This document shows positions 42,087-61,116 of a stretch of 64,000 bases of DNA, in pieces. Position numbers and translations under genes: made by a program. The DNA lies in IMG/VR virus record IMGVR_UViG_3300024348_000007, one strand, 5' to 3'. The notes under the pieces are model-generated. The model saw only the letters and a list, made by a program, of their open reading frames with translations, was not told where the DNA came from and made no database searches. Every line of letters begins with the position of its first letter. Within the stretch, counting starts at the first letter, position 1. The DNA comes from a virus.

Positions 42087-42124
42087 AAAGAAAAATAGAA
42101 GCCTAACTGGGGAGAGTGAACCGA

Positions 42125-45100
42125 ATGGCAAATGATAAAAAATTCATAGTAAAGAACGGACTTCAATCTGAGAATAACGTTCTTGTCGGTACTACAACAG
42201 ATGACGGCGTAAATAAATTACAAGTATCAGGTACAACTAAGCTTATAAACTCAGGCTCATCGGTTCCAATTACTATTGAGAACACGGGCGGTATTAATAC
42301 TCCTTTAATAAATTTTGAAGGTGGTGTAGGCGCGCTACAAGTTAAAAACACGGGTAGCGGAGACTATAGTATTCTCAATACCTCAGGCGCTAACGAAATA
42401 AAATTTAATGATAATACTGCAAATGGTTTGGTATTCATTGCTGGCAATACAGATCAGCTTAAAATCAATACTACTGTAGCAGATTTCACTAATGTTCCTT
42501 CTATTAATGGTGTACCAGTTTGGTATAGCGGTAACGATGGAGCAGGATCTGGTCTTGATGCCGACTTATTAGACGGTCTTAATTCAATACAATTCCTGCG
42601 TAGCGATGAAAACGATACTTTTGACGGTGACTTAGTTATAACTGGTGATCTTACTGTACAAGGTACTCGTACTGAAATAATTTCAGAAACAGTTTTAATT
42701 GCTGATAATATCATTACACTTAATAGTAATTTCACAGCATCTAATCCTACAGAAAATGCAGGTATAGAAGTAGAACGTGGTACTTTAACTAATTCAATTT
42801 TTCAATGGAACGAAACTATGGACTGGTGGGAACTTAATTCTGCTGGTACAAGTTTAGGACGTATTATTACAACAGCCGATGAAGGTTCAGGCAACGGGTT
42901 TGATGCGGATACAGTTGATGGTTTACAAGCTTCACAATTTATTCGTTCTGATGTTAATGACGTCGCAACTGGTAATTTAGAATTTGAAGGCACAGTTGCT
43001 ATTGGTAACGAGGCTGGTTCCGCATTACTCACAATGCGAGGTGCTGGTACTAACAGAGTTCTTTCTTCTGATAACGGAAAGATAGGTTTCTTAGATACAG
43101 GCTTTGCTTATAATACATATTCTGATGCTAACTACAATTGGCATGTAGGGAACGATGTTATTGCTAAAAGATTACTTGATGCAGATGATAACAGCTATCT
43201 AGTCGATCCTGCGGGAGAGTCTCAACTAAATGATGTCGTATTAGTAGGTGAACTTTACGGCCATGACGGTACTGCAAAAGATGGTAGCACATATATCGAT
43301 CTTCAAAACAACGGTACAACTGGATTAATTTATTTTAACGTTGATGGCGCTGGGTTACACACCACTTTATCAAAAGATCAGATGTTTGTAAACAAAAAAG
43401 TTGTTGCACCAAGATTTGAAGATAGCAACGATAACGGATATTATGTAGTACCTAGTAGTGTATCAAGACTTAGCCAAATTCAAATAGATGATTATATCAT
43501 ACACAAAGGTGATACAAATACTTACTTTGGTTTTGACACAGATGATAGTTATAAATTGTACATTAACGGTGTTCAACAACTCGCAATGTCAGCAAGCTCT
43601 GCCGTATTTACTAATGATGTTGAAGCGGCTAGATTTGTAGATTCAGATAACAATAGCTATTTTCTTGATCCAGCTAGTGCCTCTACTTTAAATACAATTG
43701 GTATTGACTCAGATCTTTTCCATAACGGTGATACCGATACTAAACTTTCATTCGGTACAAATCAAATTGATTTCAATACTGGCGGTACACAAAGACTTTC
43801 TATAGCAAACGCAGCATCAACCTTCAGTCACAGTGTAATTGCTCCCAACGTTTACATAGACGATTACATATATCATACAGGAGACACGCCTGCAAATACA
43901 ACTTATTTTGGTTTTTCTGCAGATGATAATTTTGGCGTAGTATTAGGAGGTAATGGTGCACTTTTACTTACGCCTACCGCTACAACTTCTATTGCTTACA
44001 TATATGCGCCTCGCTTTGTTGACACAGATAATAGTGCTAGATATTTAGATCCTAGTGCTACTTCACCTTTGAATAACATTTCTTTAGATGGTGTTTTACA
44101 AAACTTAAACGATCCAGATACATATTTAACATTTGCTTCGGATGCGGTTCAGTTTTATACTGGTAATACATTAAGAGCTTTTATTAATAATTCTTATCTT
44201 GAAACTACGGTTTCTGTAAGATCTCCAGTATATTATGGCACAAGCCAAATAGTTGATTTCTTAGATCTCGATGCAGGAGCTGGTTCTGACGCTTTAAGAG
44301 TTAGAGGTAGACTTAACATCGGTGGCGGTACTGATGTTGAAAGATTTAACGATACTACAGGAAATGGTGGTATTACTATTTCTGGTTATGCAGGTATGGG
44401 TGGAACAACTAATCCATCAATTCAAGTATCTGGTGCAAACGGCGCAAGATCTCTTTTATCTCTTAACAAGATTGATATTGGTGGAAACCCCTATTCTTCT
44501 AAAAATAACTACTTTGCAGAATTCTTAACTGATGGTGCAGCAGCTTTCTCAATCAGAGGCGACAATTCTAAAAACGCTTATTTTATTGCAGACGCAGATC
44601 AAAAAATGGTGTTTATGGATAGTGGAGCCAATACAAGATTGGCTATGGATGAGTTAGGCAACACTATTATCGGTAACGACTCTATAAGTTTTACTCAAGG
44701 ATCACATACACCAGTACTTGCTTCTGGAGCAAAAACAGATGGTAAACTACACGTTGACGGTTCCATTCATATAAACGGTGCAGACGATGCGTTGGTTATT
44801 GGTGGTACTACATCTACTTTCTTAAGAGATGACGAACTAGGATTTGGTTCAGGCGGTGGTTTCTATATGAACGATACTACCAATCTTAGAGTTAGAAATA
44901 ATAAGTTACTAACATCAACGGGTAATGCTTCATTCGCTCAATATCTAGATGCTAATGATGTTTTATTCTATGGTGACTTTGCTAGTACATCACGAATGAA
45001 TAACATAAGCCTTGTCGGTGAAGTTATACACGACGGAGATACTAATACTAAAATTGGTTTTGGCACAGATCAAATTATTTTTACTGCCGGTGGAACTGCA

Positions 45101-48100
45101 CAGCTTAATGTATATACAACATATGCGCAAGCTACTACAGATATGCGATCCCCAATATTCTCTGATGCTGGTGGAACTTTTAAATTTGAGCCTAACACGA
45201 GCTCAGCTCACAGATTTACAACTCCTACCGGTTGGTTAGAAATCGGTTCTAAAGTTGCAGGTTCAACCGCATTCGATACAGATAGAGCTTTATTCACTTT
45301 CAATAAACGAGTAAATTTTGACGGCGGAATTTCTGCGGCTGACACAAACGATGACGCGTATTTTAATCGCTATTACGATTATGGAGATAATAACTATTAT
45401 ATAGATGCGGCTGGAGATTCACAATTAAATACTATTGACATTGACGACTTTATCAGACATCGTGGAGATACAGGAACTTATATGGGTTTCTCTGCTGCAG
45501 CAACTTATAAAGTAGTCATAGTAGGTACTGAAAGATTAAATATTGACGGAAACTCTGCTGATTTTAATGTTGATGTTTATGCTCCTCGTTATTATGATTC
45601 TAATAATACAAACTATTACGTAGATCCTGGATCTACATCTATTGTTAATAATCTTAGAACAAATCAAATCCAAATGGATGGTTCTTCTCTAATTATCGAC
45701 TCACCATCTGGTCCTAAAGGTACCATAATGGTTACGGGTGAAAGAGATAGTTACGCTGGTTATATGATTGATAACGACTGGGGCTTTATATCTAGTGGTG
45801 CTACAGAAATGGGTCTGTATAACGAGACAGATAACGAATGGTCATTACTCGCCAATAGAAATAACTTCACAAGATTATATTCTAACAACATCCATCAAAT
45901 TGGTGCAGAAAATGGTTACGGTTACGCTCCTAACAGAATGAGAGCGCCAATATTTGAAGACTCAAACGACACGGCATTCTATGCCGATCTGGCTGGTCAA
46001 TCACGATTAAAATCTGTTAAGGCTGGCGATAGTGCAATCTATAATAATACAACTTATCCATTAGAAGTTAAGTCTTCACAAGAACGCATGATCGTTATGC
46101 AAAATACATCTGCTGACACTAACTTTCCATCAATTTTACATAATACTAGAAACTCTCGCGCTACTATGGCGTTATCATTTAACAACATTGGTGAGCGTTT
46201 TTGGTTTGAAGAAAATGGTAATATACAAGCATACGGCGCAGGTATCTTTGGATCTCTTGCACTTAACGGCGGTAATGAAGATCTTGGTCTTCTGAAAACT
46301 TATGGATCAGGACTTGCCGATCTTAAAATGTTTGATGCTTCAGACTATTGGGATAAGCGAGTTATTCAGCCGATGCAAGGTTCTGAAAACAGTGCTACAT
46401 CTAGTACAGGCGAATATGTTAAAAACGGAAATGGTCCATTTGCATCAAGTTATGCTCTAAGAACTGCGGGTTACAGAGATTTCGACTCTGATTATATTCC
46501 AGTTCAACCTGGAGAAACAATCTACGTTGAACAAGCTGTAAGAAATATTAGTGGTTCTGGCGGTTTATTTTATCTTGGTGTTAGAAGATACGATAAAGAC
46601 AAAAACCCGATTGCGTCTAACGATGGTATTGTATACTTCGGAGCAAGCGCTATTAATAATACTTCTACTTCTTGGACGGAATACAAAGGTACTCATACTC
46701 TTCCAACATCTCATACACCGTATAACGGTTCTGACGGAGAAGGTGTTCGCTATGTAAGAGTTATTTCTCTTATGAATTATAGCGCAGGTGGTGCTACACG
46801 CGAATTTGGTCCTCCAATTTTAAAACGTACTAACGTACAATCTGATTTAGTTACTCCAAATCTTACAGTTGAAGTCGATTTAACGGTAGGTGGAAACGCA
46901 ACAATTACCGGTGATTTAACAGTTGATGATATTACAGCAGATGTTATTACCGCAAATAGATTTGCAGATCGTGGTAATACTGCTTATTATGTTGAGCCAT
47001 TAACTGGCGCTAAAGTTGCTGGTTCTTGGGATTGGACAAACGGTTCTATCAACAATCTAAACAACTTAACATTTAACGATCCAGGTCCTAATGAAGGTAT
47101 TAAATGGAACGGTGGTAATCTATGGCAGATTTATGAGTCACCAAATGACTTAGCAACTAATACAGGTGGTAATTTACAATTTACTTCTGGTGCAAATCAA
47201 GGCTCGATGAGACTTAGAGTTGATACTTCTGGTGATGTATACGCTGGACGTTATCATAGAGCACAACGTTTTTATGATACTAACAATGCTGCTTACTACG
47301 CAGATCCTGCTTCAACATCTGTACTTAATCAAGTATATATTAATGAATATCTCCGCCACAGTGGTGATACAGATACTTATTTAAGATTTATAGGTGCAGA
47401 CGATATGCAGCTTGTTGCTGGTGGTCGTCAAATGCTTCGTATGGGTGAAGGTACAGATCCTGATAGATTACGATTTGTTACAGATAGTAACTGGACAGAC
47501 TCTAACGGTGACTGGGCAATGTCTCGTAATGTTGTTGTACAAGGTACACATACCGCTGTAAACAGTTCATACGCGCCAATATTCTACGATTATGATGATA
47601 ATGCTTATTATGGTAATTTTGCTGGCACATCTTTAATGAATATTGTTAGGGCAAATCGGTTTGAAGTAGATGGTTCTACAAGATATATCGACGGCATATC
47701 AGGTCAATACGGTACTATTAGAGTAACGGGTAACACAAACGGTTATGCTGGTTACGCGATTAACGATGACTGGGTGTTCATGTCAAGTGGCGCTGGAATG
47801 TCAGGCATTTATAACGATACGAATAACGAATGGTCTGCTCAATTCCTACAGAATAGTGATGTTAAACTTTATCATAACGGTGGAGAGAAATTCAGCACGA
47901 ACTCTGGTGGCGCTACAATTTATGGCAGACTAATAGCTGATTACATGGCAGATAGAAATAATACAGCGTATACTGTTAACCCTGCTGGCACATCAAGGTT
48001 CTTAGATTTAGACGTTGATAACCCTATCGGTGGAAATATCGCTGGGTATTCTGAGAACTTATTAAGAGTTGATAACAGAGATATTGAGCCAAATGATCAT

Positions 48101-50695
48101 ACTGCAGGCAGATTAACGTTTGGTTTCACATCTTGGAATAATAACAACACATCACCTTGGGCTGATTATTTACACTTAAGATCTTATACAGATGCATCAG
48201 GTGGATCAGATAACCTTCTTATGTTTAAGAAGTCTGGTCGTGGAATGCGTTTATGGCAACAAACTTTTAACAGTGGTACAGCGTATTCCGCGTATTCTGA
48301 TGTTGCGATATATAACGCAAACCCTGGTAATACGCCTTTCTATGCATCAAGATACTATGATTCAAATAATACTGCATACTACGGTGATTTTGCATCAACA
48401 TCCATTGTTAATATAATTAGGTATGCGTCTGGTGGTTATGCAGAGTTCCAAACAGCAGCCGGTAATATTCGCGGATATATGCAAGCAACTGACGACAACG
48501 ATGCGCACCTTAAAATTGCTACATCGGGCGGTGAAGATATTAGATTTACGGACGGCGGCCTATCCGGTGATTGGAATGTGATTATCAGAGGTGATGGTCA
48601 AACATTAATTCGAAGCAGATTAGACACTCCTATCATGTACGATAGAGATGATACTGGTTATTATAGTAATCCAGCAGGAGCCTCCAACTTTAATACAAGT
48701 ATTCGCGCAAACGAGGTTTATGCACGTAACTGGTTCAGAAATGATAACTCTGGCGAGGGTATGTATAACCAAGCAACGGGTATGCATTGGTATTCAACAA
48801 ATAATACCACTTGGAGAGCATACGGCGGACAGACTACTGTAAAAATAGAAATGAACACAGCTAGTAATACTTTAAGAGGTTCATTCTACGCAAACAATAG
48901 TGATGAAGTAGGTATCTTATCTCAAGATAATGGTTGGGCTTTACAAGCTACTAACTCTAAAGTAGATGCGCACCATAATTTCTATGCTCCTATCTTTTAT
49001 GATAGAGACGATTCAAATTATTATGTAAATCCAGCCGGCGATGCAAGAATTTCTGGTACTGTTCAAGCAAACCGTTTTACACATAGAGATGCAGTATCAC
49101 AAAACGATACTTTTGGACTATATTTTGCTGATAACGCATCTACTGCATACGCGATTTATCGTGAAAGCGGTGGTTGGAGCAGCCCATATCCAGATTTAAG
49201 AATTGCTTTCCATACTGGTATTAAGTTTGGTGCAAACTCTGGTTACCAAGGTATGCGTTTCTATAATGACTATAACATGGTTACTCAGGTTATGTCAATC
49301 AATAATGGTAGTGACCCATTAGGTGCTAACGATGTTTATGTAAATAACTCATTGCAATCAGGCAATTCATTAAGATCGCCTATTTTTTATGACTCGAACG
49401 ATACAGCTCGTTACACGAACCCTGCAAGTACATCTGAAATGGGCACTATACGAGCCGATCGTTTTGATATGCGTGATCGTGGAGATTGGATTACTTTCTA
49501 TGGTGATGATAGTACAAACCATGGTATTGCATCTCGTGGTTCTACAGGAACCGCAACTGACGATATTCGTATTAACACCTATGGTTCTCTTTTTATTAAC
49601 CTAGACTCAAACAACAATAATACATCTGGAGCTGACTTCTATATTGGTCGCCATGGTAGTGCTACTGGTACTATTGCTAATAGTGACTTGTTTAGAGTAT
49701 ACGGTGATGATAACTATGCTTACTCAGCATACAGTTTCAGAGCGCCTATCTTCTATGACTCAAACGACACTGGTTATTATTGTAATCCGAACAGTTCATC
49801 TAATTTTGCTACATCTGTTCGTGCAAATGAATTCTATGCTCGTAACTGGTTCCGTAATGATAATGGCGCAGAAGGTTTATATAACCAAAATAACGGTTGT
49901 CACTTCTATGCGAGATCGTCTCAATACTGGCACGCGACTGGTAATAATAACGCCAGTGCTATTAATATGCAATTAAGATCAACATATGACGGCAATATTA
50001 GGATGTGGTTACACGGTGACTCATCAAGTTGGTGTGGATACTTAAATGATGGCGGTCAATGGATGATTAGAACTAGAATGACAGATGGTTCGTCTCCAAA
50101 CCACTGGTATTATGAGGATTCAAACACAACTTGGACCGGTAACCCTGGGAATGATAAAGGTAAAATTGAATATCACTCAGATAGATTTTATATCGCTGCT
50201 GGTGGTAACTCAAATAGAATTTGTCAATTCCGTAGAGATGGTACTGATAAAGCTTATGTTAATAACGATGGCGTTTATGTCGGTACAGCTACGTCAGCAC
50301 AATGGGCTGACCTTGCAGAAAGATATAGCGCTGACGAAGTTTATGAGAATGGTACATTACTAGGTATGAACCTAGACGGTGAATCTGAAGGTACTCTTTA
50401 TCAACCAGGAATGCCTATCTTAGGAGTTATTTCTACATCGCCTGGTGTTAAAATGAACGACATGGAAATCGAAGATGATAACTCTCTTGAAGGTAAAATG
50501 AACCCTTATATTGCTCTTAAAGGACGTATACCGTGTAAAGTAAATGGAGACGTTAAAAAGGGTCAATGGTTAATACCTGATATTGACGGTAAATGTAAAG
50601 GAATAGATTATGGTACTTCTGGTATAAATAGTCATGAAATTATAGGAATTGCGCTTAGCGACTCCGAAAATGGTGAAGTAGAGGTGAAAGTATAA
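42125..50695 (+). CDS. Long tail fibre (~2856 aa) with ~17 AP.FYDS....YY..P repeats and C-terminal autoproteolytic chaperone-like domain (peptidase G2/IMC-like)
   Basis: ATG at 42125 (MANDKKFIVKNGL) after GGGGAG. GLDADLLDG motifs. C-terminus ADLAERY.AD..YE.GT...GVIST.PG..MN....IALKGRIPCKV.G.VKKG...IIGIAL. Confidence 0.8.
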   Translation: MANDKKFIVKNGLQSENNVLVGTTTDDGVNKLQVSGTTKLINSGSSVPITIENTGGINTPLINFEGGVGALQVKNTGSGDYSILNTSGANEIKFNDNTANGLVFIAGNTDQLKINTTVADFTNVPSINGVPVWYSGNDGAGSGLDADLLDGLNSIQFLRSDENDTFDGDLVITGDLTVQGTRTEIISETVLIADNIITLNSNFTASNPTENAGIEVERGTLTNSIFQWNETMDWWELNSAGTSLGRIITTADEGSGNGFDADTVDGLQASQFIRSDVNDVATGNLEFEGTVAIGNEAGSALLTMRGAGTNRVLSSDNGKIGFLDTGFAYNTYSDANYNWHVGNDVIAKRLLDADDNSYLVDPAGESQLNDVVLVGELYGHDGTAKDGSTYIDLQNNGTTGLIYFNVDGAGLHTTLSKDQMFVNKKVVAPRFEDSNDNGYYVVPSSVSRLSQIQIDDYIIHKGDTNTYFGFDTDDSYKLYINGVQQLAMSASSAVFTNDVEAARFVDSDNNSYFLDPASASTLNTIGIDSDLFHNGDTDTKLSFGTNQIDFNTGGTQRLSIANAASTFSHSVIAPNVYIDDYIYHTGDTPANTTYFGFSADDNFGVVLGGNGALLLTPTATTSIAYIYAPRFVDTDNSARYLDPSATSPLNNISLDGVLQNLNDPDTYLTFASDAVQFYTGNTLRAFINNSYLETTVSVRSPVYYGTSQIVDFLDLDAGAGSDALRVRGRLNIGGGTDVERFNDTTGNGGITISGYAGMGGTTNPSIQVSGANGARSLLSLNKIDIGGNPYSSKNNYFAEFLTDGAAAFSIRGDNSKNAYFIADADQKMVFMDSGANTRLAMDELGNTIIGNDSISFTQGSHTPVLASGAKTDGKLHVDGSIHINGADDALVIGGTTSTFLRDDELGFGSGGGFYMNDTTNLRVRNNKLLTSTGNASFAQYLDANDVLFYGDFASTSRMNNISLVGEVIHDGDTNTKIGFGTDQIIFTAGGTAQLNVYTTYAQATTDMRSPIFSDAGGTFKFEPNTSSAHRFTTPTGWLEIGSKVAGSTAFDTDRALFTFNKRVNFDGGISAADTNDDAYFNRYYDYGDNNYYIDAAGDSQLNTIDIDDFIRHRGDTGTYMGFSAAATYKVVIVGTERLNIDGNSADFNVDVYAPRYYDSNNTNYYVDPGSTSIVNNLRTNQIQMDGSSLIIDSPSGPKGTIMVTGERDSYAGYMIDNDWGFISSGATEMGLYNETDNEWSLLANRNNFTRLYSNNIHQIGAENGYGYAPNRMRAPIFEDSNDTAFYADLAGQSRLKSVKAGDSAIYNNTTYPLEVKSSQERMIVMQNTSADTNFPSILHNTRNSRATMALSFNNIGERFWFEENGNIQAYGAGIFGSLALNGGNEDLGLLKTYGSGLADLKMFDASDYWDKRVIQPMQGSENSATSSTGEYVKNGNGPFASSYALRTAGYRDFDSDYIPVQPGETIYVEQAVRNISGSGGLFYLGVRRYDKDKNPIASNDGIVYFGASAINNTSTSWTEYKGTHTLPTSHTPYNGSDGEGVRYVRVISLMNYSAGGATREFGPPILKRTNVQSDLVTPNLTVEVDLTVGGNATITGDLTVDDITADVITANRFADRGNTAYYVEPLTGAKVAGSWDWTNGSINNLNNLTFNDPGPNEGIKWNGGNLWQIYESPNDLATNTGGNLQFTSGANQGSMRLRVDTSGDVYAGRYHRAQRFYDTNNAAYYADPASTSVLNQVYINEYLRHSGDTDTYLRFIGADDMQLVAGGRQMLRMGEGTDPDRLRFVTDSNWTDSNGDWAMSRNVVVQGTHTAVNSSYAPIFYDYDDNAYYGNFAGTSLMNIVRANRFEVDGSTRYIDGISGQYGTIRVTGNTNGYAGYAINDDWVFMSSGAGMSGIYNDTNNEWSAQFLQNSDVKLYHNGGEKFSTNSGGATIYGRLIADYMADRNNTAYTVNPAGTSRFLDLDVDNPIGGNIAGYSENLLRVDNRDIEPNDHTAGRLTFGFTSWNNNNTSPWADYLHLRSYTDASGGSDNLLMFKKSGRGMRLWQQTFNSGTAYSAYSDVAIYNANPGNTPFYASRYYDSNNTAYYGDFASTSIVNIIRYASGGYAEFQTAAGNIRGYMQATDDNDAHLKIATSGGEDIRFTDGGLSGDWNVIIRGDGQTLIRSRLDTPIMYDRDDTGYYSNPAGASNFNTSIRANEVYARNWFRNDNSGEGMYNQATGMHWYSTNNTTWRAYGGQTTVKIEMNTASNTLRGSFYANNSDEVGILSQDNGWALQATNSKVDAHHNFYAPIFYDRDDSNYYVNPAGDARISGTVQANRFTHRDAVSQNDTFGLYFADNASTAYAIYRESGGWSSPYPDLRIAFHTGIKFGANSGYQGMRFYNDYNMVTQVMSINNGSDPLGANDVYVNNSLQSGNSLRSPIFYDSNDTARYTNPASTSEMGTIRADRFDMRDRGDWITFYGDDSTNHGIASRGSTGTATDDIRINTYGSLFINLDSNNNNTSGADFYIGRHGSATGTIANSDLFRVYGDDNYAYSAYSFRAPIFYDSNDTGYYCNPNSSSNFATSVRANEFYARNWFRNDNGAEGLYNQNNGCHFYARSSQYWHATGNNNASAINMQLRSTYDGNIRMWLHGDSSSWCGYLNDGGQWMIRTRMTDGSSPNHWYYEDSNTTWTGNPGNDKGKIEYHSDRFYIAAGGNSNRICQFRRDGTDKAYVNNDGVYVGTATSAQWADLAERYSADEVYENGTLLGMNLDGESEGTLYQPGMPILGVISTSPGVKMNDMEIEDDNSLEGKMNPYIALKGRIPCKVNGDVKKGQWLIPDIDGKCKGIDYGTSGINSHEIIGIALSDSENGEVEVKV
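50623..50630 (+). promoter_or_regulatory. Candidate T4-type late promoter TATAAATA inside the 3' end of the fibre gene, upstream of the CHxS-repeat/radical SAM operon
   Basis: Exact TATAAATA ending 67 nt before the ATG at 50697. It is intragenic in AT-rich DNA, so it could be chance. Confidence 0.55.
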
Positions 50696-50696
50696 T

Positions 50697-51110
50697 ATGC
50701 CATCATATGCAGATTTAAACACTAGCATGCAAGAAAAAGCTGGGGCACAGCTACGCACGTTTGATAAAGGAATTACTATTACAATACAATCGTGGGTTCG
50801 TATTTGGGGGTTTGATAGCTCTTACGGATCATGGATGATTGTTAACGGCTATGGTTGGTATGGTAATAGTGCTCATTACCACAGATTTGAATATGTTAAC
50901 GCAAATAACACATTGTTTGAAAACTATCTTGATGGCGGAATATATACCGGTGGTATTATCCGTTCACAAGATGTTATTGATTCAATTACCGATGTTGTTC
51001 GAAGAGCTGTTGATTTGGTCGAAGGCAGACTAACTAACAGAAGTATGACTGCACGTCCTTGTCACCAAAGCTGTCATAGTAGTTGTCATACATCTAGAGG
51101 AAGAAGATAA
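50697..51110 (+). CDS. CHxS-repeat protein A (putative radical SAM substrate/precursor)
   Basis: 137 aa ending ...CHQSCHSSCHTSRGRR; GAGG RBS; paralog of the next gene. Confidence 0.8.
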   Translation: MPSYADLNTSMQEKAGAQLRTFDKGITITIQSWVRIWGFDSSYGSWMIVNGYGWYGNSAHYHRFEYVNANNTLFENYLDGGIYTGGIIRSQDVIDSITDVVRRAVDLVEGRLTNRSMTARPCHQSCHSSCHTSRGRR

Positions 51111-51532
51111 TGGCTGCATCAGTATCTGACATTAACTCATATGTACAAACATATTCTGGCTCACAACTAAGAACTTTTGATAAAACCGTCACATATACCG
51201 TAAATACGTATGTTCGGTATTATCGATTTGATAGCGCATATGGCGGTGCGTTGAGGCTTGACGGTGCTCAATATACTACAAACTCAACCTTTACTAGAAG
51301 ATATCTTCATTACTCCTGGACCGGGCGCGATGCACTCTTTGACGGCTATTATGACTCTGGAATTACTGCAGGTGGACTTATGTATGCTCAAGATATTGTA
51401 GATACTGTAGAAGATGCTGTAAGAAGAGCTGTTGATCTAATGGAGGAAAGAATCGTAAATACAGTCAAGACAATTAACGCGTGCCATGCTAGTTGCCATA
51501 GTAGTTGTCACACATCGAGAGGAAGACGCTAA
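51110..51532 (+). CDS. CHxS-repeat protein B (putative radical SAM substrate/precursor)
   Basis: 140 aa ending ...CHASCHSSCHTSRGRR. Shares QLRTFDK, FDS.YG and QD..D...D.VRRAVDL with the previous gene; TAATG coupling on both sides. Confidence 0.8.
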   Translation: MAASVSDINSYVQTYSGSQLRTFDKTVTYTVNTYVRYYRFDSAYGGALRLDGAQYTTNSTFTRRYLHYSWTGRDALFDGYYDSGITAGGLMYAQDIVDTVEDAVRRAVDLMEERIVNTVKTINACHASCHSSCHTSRGRR

Positions 51533-52707
51533 TGTCTATGCAAAAATCATATTGTAAACAAATGAGATATTCTGGACCAGAAAGTCTAACACCATCTGAT
51601 GCATCTAAATTCGATGTTCTTATTCAAATGGAAGTTTTAGCTGGGTGCGATCACGGTTGCTTAGGTTGTTTCGTAGATAAAAACATTAATCCTGATATGA
51701 ACCAACAAATTATTGATAGAGCAAAGGAACTCGCTGATGGTGTAAAAAGAACTGGGCTTAATCTTAGAGAATTTGTCATAGGTCCAACAGATTTCTTTTC
51801 TGCAACTAACACGGAGTCAGTTTTAAATAACTCAGTAGTCCAAGAGATTATGAGAGAACACGTTGGCGCTCGGATTGCAGCACCTGCAAAATTTGATATC
51901 GCTACAATGGAAAGAGTAAAAGAAATCTATGCAATTCTTGATGACGAAGATAAGTATCGCCGTGATATGATCATTGAGTTTATTATGCCAATCGGTAAAG
52001 TAGATCAGATGTTAAATGATGAAGAATACTTTAATAATGTTATGGAAAAAGTAGAATTCTTTAAAAATAATACACCAAAACAAATGGATTGGTCTTGGAC
52101 ACTACAGGCTTCTAACGTTGTTGGTAAGAAGATTGATAAAGAAACATATAACAAGATTGTTCAAAAATCAGTAAACGAATACAAGACTATTGTAGAAATG
52201 AACCCTGCTTTCTCAAGAGCGAGATCCCAATTGGTACAGCGTAGAAACCTGTTTGGATGGAACGATTTCCTTGGTAGAGTTATTGATAAAGATAACGCAC
52301 AAGAGACAGTTATGTCAATGGCTAATCTTTATTGTAACTCAATTAACTTTATTGGACTTACAATCGTACCAGGAGAACACGGACCTACTACACATTTAAA
52401 TGTAATGCTACACGAACAAGCATTCTTCCTTAATAATAAAAACTTAGACGTTACAGGTCTTACCTTCGAAGAAATATTAGATCGTAAAAACGAGCTAGTA
52501 ACCAAGGGCATAAATAGATCAAGCAAAGTATCTGATTGCAACGGATGCCAATTTGCCGTAGCTTGTGCAAGTAGACTAATTTTTGAAGCTCAAGAAACTT
52601 TAAACGTCGATGGATGTGTTTTAAACAAAGATGTCCTTGCAGAATATAACCCATACGATTGGACTTGGAACGACGATGCGATGGAAAAACTAGGAGTAAC
52701 ATCATGA
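51532..52707 (+). CDS. Radical SAM protein (GPTD-type paralog 1)
   Basis: CDHGCLGC (CX3CX2C), IGPTDFF, C-terminal CNGC-X5-C-X16-C. Start moved to ATG 51532, which overlaps the upstream stop. Confidence 0.85.
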   Translation: MSMQKSYCKQMRYSGPESLTPSDASKFDVLIQMEVLAGCDHGCLGCFVDKNINPDMNQQIIDRAKELADGVKRTGLNLREFVIGPTDFFSATNTESVLNNSVVQEIMREHVGARIAAPAKFDIATMERVKEIYAILDDEDKYRRDMIIEFIMPIGKVDQMLNDEEYFNNVMEKVEFFKNNTPKQMDWSWTLQASNVVGKKIDKETYNKIVQKSVNEYKTIVEMNPAFSRARSQLVQRRNLFGWNDFLGRVIDKDNAQETVMSMANLYCNSINFIGLTIVPGEHGPTTHLNVMLHEQAFFLNNKNLDVTGLTFEEILDRKNELVTKGINRSSKVSDCNGCQFAVACASRLIFEAQETLNVDGCVLNKDVLAEYNPYDWTWNDDAMEKLGVTS

Positions 52708-53786
52708 TAGGTCAACACCTTTATTTTTTAAATAACAAAAAATATATTACAAACTCGACTAATCTCGAAACTGTATTTTTCGAGATGAACTCGTTTTATC
52801 ACACGAAAACACCTAGAACAGTTTGTATGATTGAATCATCAATGCCAGACAGCCAAATCGTCCAGTATGATGTAAGAGTACGTGCTGATTCTATTCGCGC
52901 TAATGCCGGTGCTGATATTATTTTTAAACCTTGGGAAGAAGTTTGTACTAGTGAGTTTATCCAAAATAGCGAAAAATATATTCTTGTAGCTTGGGAAGAA
53001 GAAGATCAAATTCACATTCACGCAAGATATGCCGCTGGCTTATTAGCCGCTGCTGGTTTCTATGCAGATACTGATCACGACGTAAACACTATTGTTGGTG
53101 AATTTATGGAAAAAATCTTTGATTGTGATAGTATGTTCACGTATATGTCAGCGGCTCCTGCCGTTCAAGATATATCAAACACAGTTGAAACTATTTTGAA
53201 TAATCCAGAAACTCCACCTTTTGATGTTATATATCAAAACGGTAAAAACTTTAGCTATGACTTTTTATTCTTTTTAAACGAATTCTATCCCTGCGCAGAA
53301 GTACAAGCTCTGTTAATCGAGAAGTTTACAATTCATAGCGCTGATATGGCACAAGATGTTATGGAACACTTTACGTCACGGCGCCACTACTTGGCATATA
53401 TTCTTTCTGTAATTGATTGGATGAACAATAACGGTTTACCAGTAGATAAACAACAATTTGTAAACGATGTTTATATGAAAGCTGCTAATAAAGGTAATTA
53501 TCAAATTGCGTTTTATCAATTGGAAGAGTTATGGAATAGGGTAAAAGATAACGAAGCTTTCATTCTTGCACATACTGATAAAAGAGATAACACAAGAGAT
53601 GGTTGGGAATTTTGGGATATGTATACCGAAATAAGCAACGTATTCCCTATCGTTAAAAAGGTGCTTGAGCGTAGTTTTGATATGGATAATCTAACAGAAG
53701 ACTTGAGGTTGATTAACACTGATGTTCAGTTCTTCTCTAAAAGACAAAATAGAATTCCATATTTGATACACAAATACACATTATAG
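52704..53786 (+). CDS. Hypothetical protein in radical SAM cluster
   Basis: ATG at 52704 overlaps the upstream TGA (ATGA) with AGGAG RBS; no recognisable motif. Confidence 0.75.
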   Translation: MIGQHLYFLNNKKYITNSTNLETVFFEMNSFYHTKTPRTVCMIESSMPDSQIVQYDVRVRADSIRANAGADIIFKPWEEVCTSEFIQNSEKYILVAWEEEDQIHIHARYAAGLLAAAGFYADTDHDVNTIVGEFMEKIFDCDSMFTYMSAAPAVQDISNTVETILNNPETPPFDVIYQNGKNFSYDFLFFLNEFYPCAEVQALLIEKFTIHSADMAQDVMEHFTSRRHYLAYILSVIDWMNNNGLPVDKQQFVNDVYMKAANKGNYQIAFYQLEELWNRVKDNEAFILAHTDKRDNTRDGWEFWDMYTEISNVFPIVKKVLERSFDMDNLTEDLRLINTDVQFFSKRQNRIPYLIHKYTL

Positions 53787-53796
53787 GATGTAATAA

Positions 53797-54702
53797 ATGA
53801 ATGATAATGATACAAACAACTTGAATCCAGACAGAGAATTCGAAGATCACAAACTTTCAGAGCGTGAGAAGAATTTTAAAGCTTATACTTTACCTCTTGC
53901 TCCTCAAGATTTAGTTGCGATATATAAACAAAAAGAAGAAGATAAAGACTTTATTCTCTATGTAGACTACTATCAAACTAAACAGAAATTAAGCCCTAAG
54001 CATATTATTATATATTTGGCAAACACCAACTTTAAGGCTGGCTTTACTTTCTTAGATGAAGAATTAATTACAGAATATATTAAATCAGATTTTATGATTG
54101 ATTGTCCAATTCTTGTGCGTATGGTTTCTATTATAGTCAGAATGAGATTGCATTATGATATCAATGGTGCTGAAAAGAAATTAACTATTTTATTCCCAGA
54201 AGAAAAAATACATCAATTTATTGAACAGAACATTGAATTAGTCGATGAACTAATCGAAACTATTAGAGATTCTGTGCCGTGGGCTATGGTTAATTTGCAT
54301 GAAAACTTGACTGACGAAGCCAAAAAAGAAGAGAAAGAACTTACAAACTTTATTAATAATATTGATGTTTATGATAAACCATCGAATTGCGGACCTAACG
54401 TTGCACGATTTATTACAGAAGCTTGGGACGGGTTTTTATGTATTATTCATAATAAGGGTGTAAGCTCGACTTATAATAAAACAGTTTATAATGAACAACC
54501 AAAGTACTTTGGTAAAGATTTATACTACATTATGAACGAAACTAGGGTTATAGATCAGATTATGGCATTGTTCCCATCATGGTTTTGGGCTAAAATCGAA
54601 ACAGTAGATATAAACGCGCTATTAGAAGAAACTGAGGGCGAACATATCGATAAATTTGTCGACGGTCTTGAAGATAAGTTCAATGATAGTCCATCTAAAT
54701 AA
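53797..54702 (+). CDS. Hypothetical protein in radical SAM cluster
   Basis: 301-aa ORF, AGGA RBS, acidic and probably helical; no recognisable motif. Confidence 0.75.
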   Translation: MNDNDTNNLNPDREFEDHKLSEREKNFKAYTLPLAPQDLVAIYKQKEEDKDFILYVDYYQTKQKLSPKHIIIYLANTNFKAGFTFLDEELITEYIKSDFMIDCPILVRMVSIIVRMRLHYDINGAEKKLTILFPEEKIHQFIEQNIELVDELIETIRDSVPWAMVNLHENLTDEAKKEEKELTNFINNIDVYDKPSNCGPNVARFITEAWDGFLCIIHNKGVSSTYNKTVYNEQPKYFGKDLYYIMNETRVIDQIMALFPSWFWAKIETVDINALLEETEGEHIDKFVDGLEDKFNDSPSK

Positions 54703-58999: not shown

Positions 59000-59671
59000 G
59001 AATGTTCTTGGAAACGAATCATTAATCTTACCCCATTGTTCCATGCTATCTACAAATATATTTTTAAAAGTAACATCGATATCTTCCATTGGATAAATCG
59101 CCATCAGATCGTTACCGTAATTTAATCTAACTTCGTATGTTTCGTCTTTTAAAGGAAACAATAAGAATACATTAATCGCATGTTGATCATAGAAATTAAG
59201 AACGCCTGGTGCTACAAGTATCCCATGCTTGCGTAAATCTTCACTGTAATGAAATTCACAATTCATAAAATCTACTGGCTTCTTAGCTTTTAAATACCAA
59301 GGAGCTTCTAATTTCACGACAGCATATCCCTTATAAAAATCATCGCCATACTGTCTTTGTTCATGCACACCAGTACTGACTTGATGAGAATGCAACGGAC
59401 TTGCAGACGAAACCTTTCCGTTTGGTTCAACTCTAAAAATCATATCGGACCACAATCTCATTATAATAGCTTTTTGCATATATTGTGTAATTCCAGGACA
59501 AGCCTTTACAGTTGGGGTTGGAACCATAATGCCTGACTTTGAATTATAAACAGTGTACATTGTCGACAATTTTTTCCACCATGAAGGCTTTCTAATTTTA
59601 GATGTCCATTTAAAATTTTCGAAAACGCTTTTATCGTAAGTGTAAGCTTCAATCTCTAGTTTTTTTCTCAT
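58958..59671 (-). CDS. Hypothetical protein (TVKACPGI...W.D family, beta-rich)
   Basis: Long ORF ending the - strand cassette. TVKACPGITQYM..AIIMRLWSD resembles a recurrent phage hypothetical family of unknown function. Confidence 0.65.
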   Translation of the reverse strand: MRKKLEIEAYTYDKSVFENFKWTSKIRKPSWWKKLSTMYTVYNSKSGIMVPTPTVKACPGITQYMQKAIIMRLWSDMIFRVEPNGKVSSASPLHSHQVSTGVHEQRQYGDDFYKGYAVVKLEAPWYLKAKKPVDFMNCEFHYSEDLRKHGILVAPGVLNFYDQHAINVFLLFPLKDETYEVRLNYGNDLMAIYPMEDIDVTFKNIFVDSMEQWGKINDSFPRTFLGRYYSRKRTARK

Positions 59672-60728
59672 AATCAAATCCTGTAATTAAGTTCTGTCCA
59701 GTTTTTTCCATATAGTTAAACCACATTCTCATGATGCAGTCAGGTAAGTCTCGTTCTCTATTCTTCCAATCCCATTGGGTATAACATCTAAATCCACATT
59801 TGTTCCACCACTTACAAGATAAACAACCATTCTCGTCCATATATGCTTGCATCATACCAGCATTATCTTTGGGTTTATATTCTGTATTAAAATCTCTCTG
59901 ATCATATCTATCCCATCTACAGTTTGACGTAGAATTATCGGGGAATATCGTAACCTTATTTAAAGCCAAGCAATGCATATGGTTACTATCATTATATATA
60001 AGATCTTTTATAGGATTAATATCGGGATAGTTATGATATACAAATTTAAGAAATTCTAAGTATTCACTATCAGATGGAATCATATAATCATAACCACGAT
60101 CTGGAATGTAATCATCAAAGTAAAAGTTATCAAACTTTTCATATAGATAGTGAAAATACTCATCATCGTCTGCCATAAACTTTTTTATTGATAAAGTAGT
60201 AGCAACCATATTAATTGATACGATATAGTCGGCAAAGTATTCTATATTTTTAGCATATGGACCTTTTGTTGGTCGCCCATCAAAGTCATATGAACATATA
60301 ATATGTGAAGGAATTGCTTCAGCGTTTAGGTCGTCGAGCAGTCGCTGAACTCTGTCTCGTTTACTAAATTGAAACGATGTTACCCACACAACTTTAATTT
60401 TTTGTTTATGTTCGTCAAATATCTTTTTAATTGCTACAAGGAAATCAAAGTAAACAGGGTAAGCCCATTCTGATATTCTATCTTGGAATAACTCACCGCC
60501 AACCATATTGATTTGGATTATATCAACTCTGCCTTTCATCTTAATGACATGTTGTTCAACTAAATCCAATTTAGAGAATATCTCTTCCCTACTCAATCCT
60601 ACGGTAGATTTTTTATCATGATGGCAGAACGAACAATTGAGGTGACAGTTTTCAAATAAAGTCAACTCAATCTCAGCGATATCAGGTCGTTTAGTTTCTA
60701 ATAATGTTTTTGTTATTTCAAAGTCCAA
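59649..60728 (-). CDS. Radical SAM protein with SPASM-like C-terminus
   Basis: CHLNCSFC, MVGGELF, C-terminal HC...NC...CLSCKWWNKCGFRC...DC. Probable TTG start at 60728 after GAGG (ORF open to 60785). Confidence 0.85.
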   Translation of the reverse strand: MDFEITKTLLETKRPDIAEIELTLFENCHLNCSFCHHDKKSTVGLSREEIFSKLDLVEQHVIKMKGRVDIIQINMVGGELFQDRISEWAYPVYFDFLVAIKKIFDEHKQKIKVVWVTSFQFSKRDRVQRLLDDLNAEAIPSHIICSYDFDGRPTKGPYAKNIEYFADYIVSINMVATTLSIKKFMADDDEYFHYLYEKFDNFYFDDYIPDRGYDYMIPSDSEYLEFLKFVYHNYPDINPIKDLIYNDSNHMHCLALNKVTIFPDNSTSNCRWDRYDQRDFNTEYKPKDNAGMMQAYMDENGCLSCKWWNKCGFRCYTQWDWKNRERDLPDCIMRMWFNYMEKTGQNLITGFDYEKKTRD

Positions 60729-61116
60729 ATAACATTTCCTCTTTATAGTATTCGTAGATATCGGGAACCATACCAAGTTTTTCATTAAACTCTAGTTGGA
60801 ATAGTATCTCGTCGTAAGTTTCTTTGTCTTGCCAATATGGAACAAAGTGCGGATCATTATTAAATAGTAACTCAGGATCGTTAAGTGCATCGAAAAACGG
60901 TTCGTTAAAATCCCTGTTTAACCAATGAGCATAACATATAGCAACTACATATGATTTAGCTGGGTAAATCCATTCGTCTACATACTCTCTGAAGTGTGTT
61001 AGAGCAAACTCAACCGTAAGGTCAGGTTGCCAATTAATCTCCACGTCAGTCAGATCATCTTTGAATAAAGATGCTGTCAAATGATATGCGCTTTGTCTAG
61101 CTTTCCATTCTTTCAT
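60718..61116 (-). CDS. Hypothetical protein in radical SAM cluster
   Basis: Acidic, aromatic-rich ~132-aa ORF overlapping both neighbouring radical SAM genes; start at 61116 or 61143. Confidence 0.7.
   Translation of the reverse strand: MKEWKARQSAYHLTASLFKDDLTDVEINWQPDLTVEFALTHFREYVDEWIYPAKSYVVAICYAHWLNRDFNEPFFDALNDPELLFNNDPHFVPYWQDKETYDEILFQLEFNEKLGMVPDIYEYYKEEMLFGL

Follow-up and report, generated by a model that had tools for sequence, protein, structure and literature searches.

The closest known parallel to the locus analyzed in this work is the HXS antiphage system, in which the HxsA effector with His-Xaa-Ser repeats is accompanied by the radical SAM enzymes HxsB and HxsC and by HxsD (Li et al. 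2026, PMC13128918). A +8 Da modification was mapped there to a single S-H-R-S-S unit, and neither His nor Ser is dispensable (PMC13128918). Besides HxsA with its HxS repeats (PMC13128918), CrpA/CrpC (PMC13692751) is a precedent for radical SAM modification of a whole protein, and thioether crosslinks are made on CrpA (PMC13692751) as well as on QhpC of the QhpC/QhpD pair (PMC8326336). Residues that carry a functional group (Thr, Asn or Asp) serve as acceptors in ranthipeptides (PMC8326336).

The window, i.e., the whole stretch of 64,000 nucleotides of viral DNA that was analyzed (IMG/VR record IMGVR_UViG_3300024348_000007), contains two adjacent genes for small proteins with a common Cys-His tail (tail proteins A and B), which are followed by a cassette rich in radical SAM genes. 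As in HXS, the genes of several radical SAM enzymes and small helpers accompany that of a whole protein, not a short peptide, which bears H-x-S units in tandem amid basic residues. The cassette is not, however, a member of that system: an invariant Cys stands before each H-x-S unit, the units occupy the extreme C-terminus with R-G-R-R behind them, the carriers are structural-type proteins of phages with neither an export signal nor a peptidoglycan-binding domain, the enzymes number four to nine, and the cassette belongs to phages and predatory bacteria and not to host defense. In NCBIfam, the HxsA model gave no match for either tail protein at E <= 0.1, and no HxsD match was obtained for the 141-aa, about 360-aa, 301-aa, and 239-aa cassette proteins. 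HxsC (TIGR03977) reached 24.5 and 15.5 bits where the cut-off is 267.9, HxsB did not appear among the models listed, and the paralogs on the + strand gave no match.

The nearest solved-structure relative of the best-conserved cassette enzyme is, by sequence, anSME (TIGR03942; PDB 4K36-4K39), which modifies Cys or Ser within a folded protein substrate (sulfatases). In phmmer the enzyme aligns with 4k36 (E 8e-7) over no more than its N-terminal 105 residues, TIGR03942 reached 42 bits against a cut-off of 349.45, and no sulfatase domain was found. The substrate motif of anSME is C/S-x-P/A-x-R, whereas the last unit of the tail, C-H-[TSG]-S-R, has neither Pro nor Ala at +2. Ranthipeptides and sactipeptides (SCIFF/CteB, freyrasin/PapB, NxxcA), whose crosslinks are thioethers, resemble the tail in having Cys-rich C-termini with short, regular spacing and SPASM radical SAM partners. 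Compared with the acceptors of ranthipeptides, the tail position after His-x is Ser and sometimes Asn. The invariant His, the size and type of the carriers (virion-type proteins of 100-541 aa), and the presence of many enzymes in place of one set the locus apart from these peptides; there was no match to a SCIFF precursor, and rSAM_PapB gave 24.4 bits against a cut-off of 340. No paper describing the combination of the tail with a radical SAM cassette was found in the literature.

Organization of the Tail-Protein Locus

The pair lies directly behind a giant fiber-like gene, in the following arrangement.

42116..50695, + strand: giant distal fiber-like gene (2859 aa), directly 5' of the pair
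50198..50692, + strand: putative Peptidase_G2-type intramolecular chaperone domain at the C-terminus of the fiber
about 50303-50320, + strand: putative self-cleavage motif W-A/D-L-A-E (slash at the putative cut) in the fiber chaperone domain
50623..50630, + strand: TATAAATA, T4-type late-promoter-like motif, 67 nt before gene A
50697..51110, + strand: tail protein A (137 aa), copy-1 orthologous clade
51060..51107, + strand: tail peptide of A, C-H-Q-S-C-H-S-S-C-H-T-S-R-G-R-R
51110..51532, + strand: tail protein B (140 aa), copy-2 orthologous clade, start overlapping the stop of A (TAATG)
51482..51529, + strand: tail peptide of B, C-H-A-S-C-H-S-S-C-H-T-S-R-G-R-R

A single base separates the fiber stop from the start of gene A, which has a GAGGTG Shine-Dalgarno-like motif 10 nt 5' of it, and TAATG overlaps couple A, B, and the first radical SAM gene (51532..52707) translationally. 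All six copies of the late-promoter-like motif in the window are on the + strand, and four others than the one before gene A lie 25-31 nt before the starts of structural genes. The last 140 aa of the fiber are 37% identical (E 7e-9) with the C-terminus of gp176, a virion protein of phage Atu_ph07. A profile of 18 homologs of the chaperone domain matches the pre-neck appendage gp12 of phi29 (6qz9, 3gqh; E 0.003-0.004), and W-A-D-L-A-E of the fiber aligns on W-S-D-F-A-E of gp12 (residues 690-695). PF11962 matches 11 of the 18 members of the domain (best E 1.8e-6); the copy in the window gave no match, and that of Atu_ph07 reached 19.5 bits against a cut-off of 25. In all short-scaffold loci the first tail gene abuts a gene ending in such a putative phi29-gp12-type chaperone domain.

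This arrangement recalls that of T-even phages, where gp38 is encoded directly after the distal long-fiber gene and has conserved ends around a hypervariable segment. An earlier note, made on this DNA from the sequence alone, had placed the pair at the site of the T-even adhesin/chaperone gene. The position directly behind the distal fiber gene stands, but no homology to gp38 or to a known adhesin or chaperone was detected, either in sequence or (with a model of B of pLDDT 72) in fold, and gp38 has no counterpart of the Cys-His tail or the radical SAM partners. As the fiber appears to carry its own C-terminal intramolecular chaperone, a self-cleaving domain of the phi29-gp12 type, a chaperone role of the pair is not needed.

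A and B are tandem paralogs (47% identity, E 8e-40) with common conserved blocks at both protein ends, so that the alignment described in the note was recovered together with the blocks it had quoted. The divergent middle, pointed out there as W/Y-rich, has 10 F/W/Y residues out of 33 in one protein and 8 out of 35 in the other; family-wide these residues make up 18% of the middle vs 9-12% of the flanks, and the middle is between 20 and 36 residues long. The two proteins represent ancient orthologous clades that were both retained, and they therefore probably act together, e.g., as a hetero-oligomer. For the body of B, an AF2 model of moderate confidence (pLDDT 72) predicts a variable beta-hairpin region with many aromatic and G/S/T/N residues, flanked by one helix on the N-terminal side and a long one on the C-terminal side; the 16-residue tail is predicted to be disordered in the monomer.

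Searches of the pair against Pfam and NCBIfam gave no informative family, and its sole match in PHROGs was phrog_35144, to which no function is assigned. The AF2 model of B had no significant Foldseek match in pdb and BFVD, and a wide VIA structure search returned generic helical matches (best Z 5.1). When the pair and a 128-aa relative were used as tblastn queries, cultured phages yielded nothing; the link to such phages was obtained solely through the enzymes. Two actinobacterial matches among genome contigs turned out to be GC-rich repeats read in a wrong frame and not genes, and a 140-aa ORF (30235-30657) behind a 4013-aa gene, considered as a further member, is unrelated.

The Tail as a Portable, Strictly Conserved Module

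The general form of the tail is (C-H-x-S)x3-R-G-R-R. The 16 codons of A and B differ by a single replacement, Q/A at position 3, and by synonymous changes at seven codons, AGA/CGC for Arg among them. The same tail ends 119 of 120 homologs, far more than chance could produce, so the loss in homologs that the note had named as refuting its view did not occur. Amongst 65 distinct DNA versions of the tail, 13 of the 16 residues are invariant and synonymous sites are saturated; at invariant positions Ser is encoded by both AGY and TCN, and Arg by both AGR and CGN. The regional comparison that had been proposed gave a pN/pS of 0.11-0.21 for the tail and 0.60-0.68 for the middle. As the residues are fixed despite saturated synonymous sites, selection acts on the peptide, and it is strict, which bears out the purifying selection suspected from the two copies in the window.

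The pair is one branch of a large family, whose gene contexts were taken from IMG/VR, from GTDB genomes, and from phages in GenBank. Many scaffolds carry the tail, which behaves as a portable module: near-constant across hundreds of phages and some predatory bacteria, it is always the exact C-terminus, in more than 100 clusters (at 50% identity) of scaffolds of 100-541 aa that are otherwise unrelated. The unit count is exactly three, with four in two MAGs. Across the wider family only Cys, His, and the terminal Arg are strictly invariant; the Ser positions tolerate Asn or Ala, and some members have Ser, Asn or Ile in place of the Gly of R-G-R-R. Immediately ahead of the tail, hydrophobic and polar residues alternate in a beta-strand-like manner.

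Three further roles of the tail were considered and set aside. Heme attachment through overlapping CX3CH motifs appears improbable, given that there is no export signal and that cytochrome c maturation genes are lacking in the cassette. The replacements of Gly speak against a glycyl radical in R-G-R-R, and an Fe-S carrier serving the many radical SAM enzymes fits poorly with bodies that are hypervariable and of which one was found in virions.

The Radical SAM Cassette and Its Co-Inheritance with the Tail

Downstream of the pair, the following genes were distinguished.

51532..52707, + strand: radical SAM paralog 1 of a divergent 'IGPTD' family; likely ATG at 51532, overlapping the stop of B (TAATG)
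52704..53786, + strand: protein X, about 360 aa, conserved, no assigned function, found in 46 loci
53797..54702, + strand: protein Y, 301 aa, conserved, no assigned function, found in 43 loci
54656-55705, 55692-56849, 56839-57996, and 57917-58999, + strand: radical SAM paralogs 2-5 of the IGPTD family
59649..60785, - strand: radical SAM gene with a CX3CX2C motif, ortholog of RSL2 ORF072 (E 4e-64)
60718..61143, - strand: 141-aa conserved cassette protein, no assigned function, ortholog of RSL2 ORF081 (8e-22)
61097..62011, - strand: radical SAM gene, ortholog of RSL2 ORF077 (E 3e-76)
61989..63026, - strand: radical SAM/SPASM gene, best-conserved cassette enzyme, anSME/DynA-like
63017..64000, - strand: radical SAM/SPASM gene, ortholog of RSL2 ORF067 (E 5e-67), running off the window end

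With a CX3CX2C motif and a C-terminal Cys-rich auxiliary-cluster domain, the enzymes can be assigned on their motifs to the radical SAM/SPASM superfamily. CX3CX2C is invariant in the five paralogs of the + strand, which have a C-terminal CX2CX5C...C motif in common; paralog 1, in which both were found, matches phrog_31457 and is the ortholog of RSL2 ORF071 (3e-15). The best-conserved enzyme corresponds to RSL2 ORF075 (1e-132) and passes the PF04055 cut-off (61989-63023; 36.8 vs 29.5 bits), while its NCBIfam matches (DynA 1e-14, TIGR03942 6e-11) all stay under the curated cut-offs. The SPASM domain TIGR04085 was recognized at 63017-63844 with 27.3 bits against a cut-off of 27. Altogether, the cassette enzymes resemble SPASM protein/peptide maturases, such as anSME, DynA, and PapB.

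Of the accompanying proteins, Y is homologous to RSL2 ORF070 (E 5e-5) and matches phrog_20767, and the 141-aa protein occurs in 41 loci covering all scaffold classes; neither a Pfam scan nor its conserved residues support a RiPP recognition element in the latter. Protein X (AF2 pLDDT 86) gave no match in an atlas search; its N-terminal domain is weakly PTP-fold-like (Z 5-6.7), with neither a conserved nor a catalytic Cys. Neither the enzymes nor the small cassette proteins showed a RiPP recognition element, no protease was recognized in the cassette, and PADLOC returned nothing specific, only generic similarity to radical SAM N-termini.

It is gene neighborhood that connects the tail with these enzymes, and the association suspected in the note was present at every locus that we inspected. 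Radical SAM genes lie within 12 kb of the tail gene in all 58 viral loci (median 6), the nearest of them at most 100 nt away in 44 of the 58. Seen from the side of the enzymes, each of the 15 cultured-phage records with the best-conserved enzyme has a tail protein inside the cassette, and the pairing recurs in about 12 loci of Bdellovibrionota MAGs. For the 141-aa protein and for four of the radical SAM genes, the marine T4-like phage analyzed here and the phiKZ-related RSL2 have 1:1 orthologs (E about 1e-22 to 1e-132), whereas the bodies of the tail proteins are unrelated. RSL2 has one IGPTD paralog and one tail protein; five paralogs and two tail proteins are present here.

A Family Member in Purified Virions

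A distant member of the family, gp170 of Atu_ph07 (31.89 kDa, tail C-H-S-S-C-H-A-S-C-H-N-S-R-S-R-R), was identified in purified virions by eight unique peptides covering 35% of the protein (PMC6102473 Table S5). The sample was a PEG-purified preparation in which some non-structural proteins were present, and the evidence concerns this one distant member. The radical SAM and cupin proteins encoded next to gp170 were not detected in the virion proteome (PMC6102473). Other proteins of 30-32 kDa peak in gel bands 7-8, and gp170 peaks in band 1, at the top (PMC6102473). Running so far above its own mass fits a fiber-associated, crosslinked or SDS-stable protein. Such migration is also typical of SDS-stable fiber trimers and is no proof of a covalent link.

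Proposed Function and Alternative Explanations

The explanation that we prefer, at a probability of roughly 0.55, is that A and B are late, fiber-associated virion proteins whose tail is covalently modified by the co-encoded radical SAM enzymes. Both would be expressed late, and their folded body would present the disordered, invariant C-terminal 16-mer as the substrate of the radical SAM/SPASM enzymes, aided by the cassette proteins without an assigned function and, in related phages, also by cupin and 2OG-Fe(II) oxygenases. In the cytoplasm, Cys, His or Ser would receive at least one covalent modification, with thioether- or cyclophane-type crosslinks or Cys oxidation as the likeliest chemistry. 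The modified protein may then join the particle at or near the tip of the upstream-encoded fiber, whose own C-terminal chaperone domain would by then have cleaved itself off. The variable middle would make lineage-specific surface contacts and the modified basic tail would supply a fixed chemical function, with A and B probably acting together, for example as a hetero-oligomer. Such a modification would probably be a chemical finishing step, not previously described, for a fiber-associated particle protein. The view advanced in the note, of small receptor-binding or fiber-capping proteins with a crosslinked or metal-loaded tail, is thus upheld in part, through tail conservation, the radical SAM link, the virion member, the position behind the distal fiber gene, and the late-promoter motif; receptor binding, metal loading, Fe-S ligation, and RGRR as a cleavage tag are candidate roles. 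Five to nine radical SAM enzymes are many for a substrate of 16 residues, and the invariant His is equally compatible with plain metal binding; both observations, together with the negative search for a RiPP recognition element and the moderate confidence of the body model, count against a modified tail.

That the tail is instead a structural site for Zn, Fe or an Fe-S cluster, with no covalent modification and with the enzymes acting on another target, e.g., the giant fiber, seems rather unlikely. Phage fiber and spike tips do have metal-binding His motifs, as in T4 gp37 and gp12 and P2 gpV, and three Cys and three His per chain could stack sites on the symmetry axis of an oligomeric fiber tip. 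The restriction of strict invariance to Cys, His, and the terminal Arg, with Asn or Ala tolerated in place of Ser, suits such a site; so do the strand-like alternation before the tail, which would put Cys and His on opposite faces, and the high-mass band of gp170, which fits an SDS-stable oligomer. It leaves unexplained, however, why phages as far apart as T4-like and phiKZ-like ones, and also Bdellovibrionota, inherit the tail on unrelated bodies together with one and the same set of enzymes, even where no giant fiber gene is nearby (L052-L056), and the tail is disordered in the AF2 monomer. If the tail were a docking tag (follower peptide) that recruits the enzymes, the modified sites would be located in the aromatic-rich middle, as cyclophane-type crosslinks, or in the partner fiber. 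We consider this decidedly unlikely, because three invariant Cys and three invariant His are rarely needed by a pure tag, long-scaffold and jumbo-phage bodies lack a common aromatic-rich segment, and the number of IGPTD enzymes does not track that of tail proteins (1:1 in RSL2, 5:2 here), even though RiPP systems combine a conserved recognition sequence with a variable core, the Trp, Tyr, and Phe enriched in the middle (18% vs 9-12%) are typical partners in radical SAM crosslinks, and many enzyme paralogs (five IGPTD) could match many variable cores.

In PqqA and MftA an invariant C-terminal core is processed by radical SAM/SPASM enzymes with oxygenases, a logic that the combination of an invariant C-terminal core with radical SAM/SPASM enzymes and oxygenases recalls, and the terminal R-x-R-R could serve as a processing signal. 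The body might then be a long leader and not a virion component, with the tail cut off and processed into a small molecule that diffuses, either a RiPP or, like PQQ and mycofactocin, a cofactor made from a peptide. It is highly improbable in view of the body of a family member in virions, with 35% coverage, of bodies that are hypervariable where leaders are normally conserved for recognition, of a cassette without a recognized protease, and of genes embedded among late structural genes. Scarcely credible, finally, is an effector of the HXS kind whose basic His/Arg tail would serve at DNA entry (e.g., in superinfection exclusion or genome delivery through the envelope) and not in receptor binding. 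The radical SAM-matured HxsA does act at a DNA-entry step, its basic HxS repeats bind DNA (PMC13128918), and the tail consists of three H-x-S units followed by R-G-R-R; but a signal peptide and a peptidoglycan-binding domain are missing, models for HxsA, HxsB, HxsC, and also HxsD had no match above cut-off and PADLOC gave nothing specific, the gene lies behind a fiber gene, and a relative is in the virion.

Wider Significance

Should the tail be modified as we prefer to think, virion/fiber proteins would join the substrates of radical SAM maturases, and a new kind of phage particle chemistry would be shared by the abundant T4-like phages of the sea, by jumbo phages from soil whose hosts are plant-associated bacteria, and by bacterial predators. 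Such chemistry would account for the radical SAM cassettes in host recognition clusters of marine myophages (PMC7029224) and among accessory genes of jumbo phages (PMC8066314, PMC11898562). A broader reading, to which we assign slightly less than even odds, holds that a dedicated radical-SAM/oxygenase pathway, common to very different phage lineages and predatory Bdellovibrionota, chemically remodels the fixed Cys-His-Ser peptide with which interchangeable cell-attack proteins end. The outcome would be a crosslinked element of the fiber or baseplate tip that might bind metal or anchor covalently. It would be the first radical-SAM-dependent PTM of a structural protein in virions and, on the side of the phage, would correspond to the host HxS-repeat defense effector. 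The parallel with HXS suggests, by analogy, that the same HxS chemistry may be used on both sides of the phage-host conflict. The conserved 16 residues would also provide a tag to find host-attack proteins in metagenomes, and the cultured carriers Atu_ph07, RSL2, FLC6, and pPa_SNUABM_DT01 make the chemistry directly accessible.

Gene Layout of the Pair and Its Surroundings

The + strand of the window, which derives from a 66-kb IMG/VR record with a completeness estimate of 30%, carries a T4-like structural module, whose baseplate wedge protein finds its best matches in Sinorhizobium phiM12-like (39% identity) and Caulobacter Cr30 (34% identity) phages. On this strand, a fibre-like gene is followed by two tandem paralogs, encoding proteins A and B, which share a 16-residue C-terminal peptide (the tail), composed of three C-H-x-S units followed by R-G-R-R.

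Fibre-like gene and the two tail protein genes of the window
42116-50695, + strand: fibre-like ORF, 2859 aa, ending one base before the 137-aa ORF
50697-51110, + strand: protein A, 137 aa
51110-51532, + strand: protein B, 140 aa, start overlapping the stop of A (TAATG)

A second TAATG overlap links the stop of B with the first of five divergent radical SAM genes. The T4-type late-promoter-like motif TATAAATA is located 67 nt upstream of gene A (position 50623). Its six copies in the window (8181, 18155, 29836, 35412, 42079, and 50623), fewer than in shuffled sequence (mean 11.2), are all placed on the coding strand, and five of them precede gene starts; apart from the gene A copy, four lie 25-31 nt ahead of structural gene starts. 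The R-G-R-R codons (AGAGGAAGA; 51096-51104 and 51518-51526) double as a Shine-Dalgarno-like GAGGAAG, placed 8-14 nt upstream of the next gene's overlapping start, the same bases serving two purposes; the R-G-R-R residues are kept even in sequences using CGN codons.

The earlier observation on the pair was confirmed as written. Proteins A and B (47% identical) align at both ends, where the conserved blocks quoted in the earlier note are present, and diverge in an aromatic-rich middle, where F/W/Y account for 10 of 33 and 8 of 35 residues, respectively; their tails differ by one replaced residue, accompanied by seven synonymous codon changes.

Conservation of the Tail and Diversity of the Bodies

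The word-indexed search yielded 126 homologs, and in 119 of the 120 listed the tail (C-H-x-S-C-H-x-S-C-H-x-S-R-G-R-R) forms the exact C-terminus. For the codon analysis, tail genes were drawn from 58 loci, which gave 65 distinct tail DNA sequences. Thirteen of the 16 tail positions are free of any residue change, and the codons of the invariant positions vary freely (Cys TGT about as often as TGC; Ser as AGY and TCN; Arg as AGR and CGN). The pN/pS values, obtained with synonymous sites saturated, were 0.11-0.21 for the tail, 0.36 for the helix region, 0.42-0.46 for the N-terminal part, and 0.60-0.68 for the middle. Invariant residues, free codons, and the lowest pN/pS together bear out the previously proposed purifying selection at the peptide level.

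The full HMM search, covering 1.84 billion representatives, resulted in 131 clusters (at 50% identity) with scaffolds of about 100 to 541 aa, most of which match the query in the last 30-60 residues only. The tail is present in about 110 of them, its consensus being three C-H-x-[S/N/A] units ahead of R-[G/S/N]-R-R. The occurrence of one tail on many scaffolds indicates that the pair represents a single branch of a large family with a constant tail and an interchangeable body.

Across the family, the middle comprises 20-36 residues (about 100 in some relatives) and exceeds the other regions in its content of F/W/Y (18%) and G/S/T/N (46%). For protein B, AF2 modelling (pLDDT 72) predicts an N-terminal helix, a beta-hairpin region with the variable segment, and then a long helix spanning residues 93-114, with the tail disordered. 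The same layout is seen in the long-scaffold and jumbo-phage proteins, where a helix precedes a low-complexity segment enriched in G/S/T/N and aromatics, followed by another helix, a short strand-like linker, and the tail. In the tree of 53 distinct proteins from short-scaffold loci, the class to which the marine pair belongs (FastTree, midpoint-rooted), first and second copies form two clades, each covering all phage lineages, and the divergent L036-L043 group is split likewise. Both copies thus appear to have been kept since before the diversification of these phages, which speaks against redundancy and in favour of separate roles, probably in cooperation.

Association of the Tail with Radical SAM Genes

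ORFs with the CX3CX2C motif were found within 12 kb of the tail gene in all 58 viral loci (median of 6 per locus), and the loci with a single such ORF are truncated contigs. In 44 loci, such an ORF lies at most 100 nt from the tail gene, and in the other loci the nearest one is no more than 2.3 kb away. In the phiKZ-related Ralstonia phage RSL2, 1:1 orthologs of the window's - strand genes are present: four radical SAM genes match with E values of 4e-64, 3e-76, 1e-132, and 5e-67, and a 141-aa protein with 8e-22. In addition, a 301-aa window protein matches RSL2 ORF070, and the five-member + strand 'IGPTD' radical SAM family corresponds to one RSL2 gene only. Inside the RSL2 cassette (the radical SAM genes with their associated genes), ORF068 is a 186-aa protein with a body of unrelated sequence and the terminal residues C-H-S-S-C-H-T-S-C-H-G-S-R-G-R-R. 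Searching from the enzyme side, we found a tail protein in the cassette of all 15 cultured-phage records with the best-conserved enzyme (the RSL2/RSF1/FLC/SURPRISE13 group, Agrobacterium Atu_ph07, Sinorhizobium Phosso, and Pseudomonas pPa_SNUABM_DT01), the gene order being mostly cupin, radical SAM, tail protein.

Among solved structures, the best-conserved enzyme (61989-63026) matched anSME over the N-terminal 105 residues (E 8e-7); in NCBIfam, it matched DynA (1e-14), anSME (6e-11), HxsC (1e-5), PapB (1.5e-5), and several further peptide-modifying radical SAM families, all far under the curated cut-offs. The radical SAM gene at the window end (63017-64000, - strand) encodes a SPASM domain (27.3 bits, cut-off 27). 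Taken together, these matches place the cassette enzymes, as judged from sequence, among SPASM-type protein/peptide maturases of no described family.

The gene at 63017-64000 runs off the window; its RSL2 ortholog, ORF067, has CX3CX2C near the N-terminus, a part that here falls beyond base 64000. Five tandem copies of the 'IGPTD' family (51532-58999) are present here, as in most marine loci, and one in RSL2 (L057:11650-13035); the number of copies does not follow that of the tail proteins. Protein X (52704-53786), also conserved among the cassettes, has a confidently predicted fold (pLDDT 86), with an N-terminal domain weakly resembling PTP/DUSP phosphatases (Z 5-6.7) that has no conserved Cys, and a remainder modelled as an all-helical domain. 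The 141-aa protein (60718-61143, - strand), which gave no family match, is kept in every cassette type, including RSL2, and W..YP.KSY.VA.CYA.W and GMVPD..EYY.EE are among its invariant residues.

Virion Association of a Distant Family Member

The tail protein of Atu_ph07 is gp170 (L062:9980-10870; 296 aa, computed 31.89 kDa). It is listed in the published virion ESI-MS/MS table (31.89 kDa, 8 unique peptides, 35% coverage) in bands 1-9, being most abundant in band 1 (PMC6102473 Table S5). Among the other 30-32 kDa proteins, those with several peptides have their maximum in bands 7-8; the remaining band 1 proteins are of 76-139 kDa, apart from gp321 and gp616 (about 32-36 kDa, only 1-2 peptides), and annotated tail fibres (61-72 kDa) peak in band 2 (PMC6102473 Table S5), which makes the gel behaviour of gp170 fibre-like. 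The fibre-like gp176 (L062:5532-7355), which bears the putative chaperone domain described below, is likewise in the table; the enzymes encoded between gp176 and gp170, the adjacent radical SAM proteins gp171, gp168, and gp165, and the cupin gp172 are absent (PMC6102473 Table S5). The preparation was PEG-purified and also held a few one-peptide non-structural proteins (PMC6102473). These data show that a distant family member is virion-associated and survives SDS boiling as a high-mass species, which fits covalent linkage and an oligomer stable in SDS equally well.

The Fibre C-Terminal Domain

The last ~165 residues of the fibre (50198-50692) constitute a conserved domain, whose 18-copy profile matches the phi29 pre-neck appendage gp12 (6qz9) and its C-terminal fragment (3gqh, 163 aa) with E of 0.003-0.004. 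PF11962 (Peptidase_G2, IMC autoproteolytic cleavage domain) was matched by 11 of the 18 members (best E 1.8e-6), the copy of the window falling below detection. The invariant W-A-D-L-A-E (about 50303-50320) aligns on W-S-D-F-A-E of gp12 (residues 690-695), at the start of the 163-residue fragment, and on this alignment the last ~128 fibre residues are probably cut off after assembly.

At every short-scaffold locus, the gene with this putative chaperone domain at its end abuts the first tail gene (gap of at most 1 nt or overlap), even though its product ranges from 154 to 3320 residues. In Atu_ph07 (gp176), Phosso, and four metagenomic loci, this gene lies 1.5-2.6 kb upstream of the tail gene; the domain was not found in the fetched stretches of RSL2, pPa_SNUABM_DT01, L052-L056, and the Bdellovibrionota loci, and was found in 57 of 82 loci overall. 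The fibre thus probably folds with its own self-cleaving chaperone, making a gp38-like chaperone role for the pair unnecessary; the mature fibre end would be the likeliest partner of the pair.

Proposed Role of the Tail and Alternative Explanations

We propose that the body would be the part fitted to a given fibre and cell surface, and that the tail would be the fixed substrate of the radical SAM enzyme set. The tail is read as a substrate because, on bodies unrelated to one another, it is inherited strictly together with the enzymes, because these enzymes are of the SPASM maturase type, and because it resembles known radical SAM substrates: ranthipeptide cores contain regularly spaced Cys-x-x-Ser/Thr units, with Thr, Asn or Asp as acceptors (PMC8326336), and HxsA, the effector of the HXS antiphage system, contains H-x-S units, with +8 Da mapped to S-H-R-S-S, in which His and Ser are essential (PMC13128918). 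Modification of whole proteins by radical SAM enzymes also has precedents, in HxsA (PMC13128918) and CrpA/CrpC (PMC13692751).

A plain metal site would be consistent with the invariance of Cys and His and with migration in the gel like that of fibres, but it leaves the universal enzyme linkage unexplained, and we regard it as unlikely. That the tail serves as a docking tag appears quite unlikely: the aromatic-rich variable middle would suit it, but the invariant Cys and His are at odds with it, and the other scaffolds share no aromatic segment. Cleavage of the tail into a small product is highly improbable given the hypervariable bodies and the detection of the body of a family member in the virion. 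A DNA-entry effector resembling that of HXS is very unlikely, its export and anchoring features being absent here; HXS is the closest described system, and none of its defining features tested here was found.

In jumbo-phage papers, cupin, radical SAM, and 2OG-Fe(II) genes are listed as accessory, with role unknown (PMC8066314, PMC11898562), and our literature search found no paper on the tail or its link with the enzymes. Proteins matured by radical SAM enzymes are known; here they would be present in virions, the virion evidence coming from the distant member gp170 and not from the pair in the window.

Occurrence of the Tail in Bacterial Assemblies

A degenerate DNA pattern of the tail detected 22 loci in species-representative genomes. 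About 12 of them belong to Bdellovibrionota MAGs, on contigs as long as 1.29 Mb, and here too radical SAM genes are close by. In two of these loci, L074 and L078 (Bacteriovoracia MAG contigs), the tail has four C-H-x-S units, not three, with radical SAM genes adjoining. Several of the other loci are phage-like contigs binned into MAGs. Five phage-like contigs with the cassette (L058, L059, L068, L073, and L083), one of them with 93% identity to protein B, were assigned to Rhodobacteraceae bacterium Water_Bin34. They are probably mis-binned phage DNA; any indication that they give of an alphaproteobacterial host, which would agree with the best matches of the baseplate protein, is weak at most.
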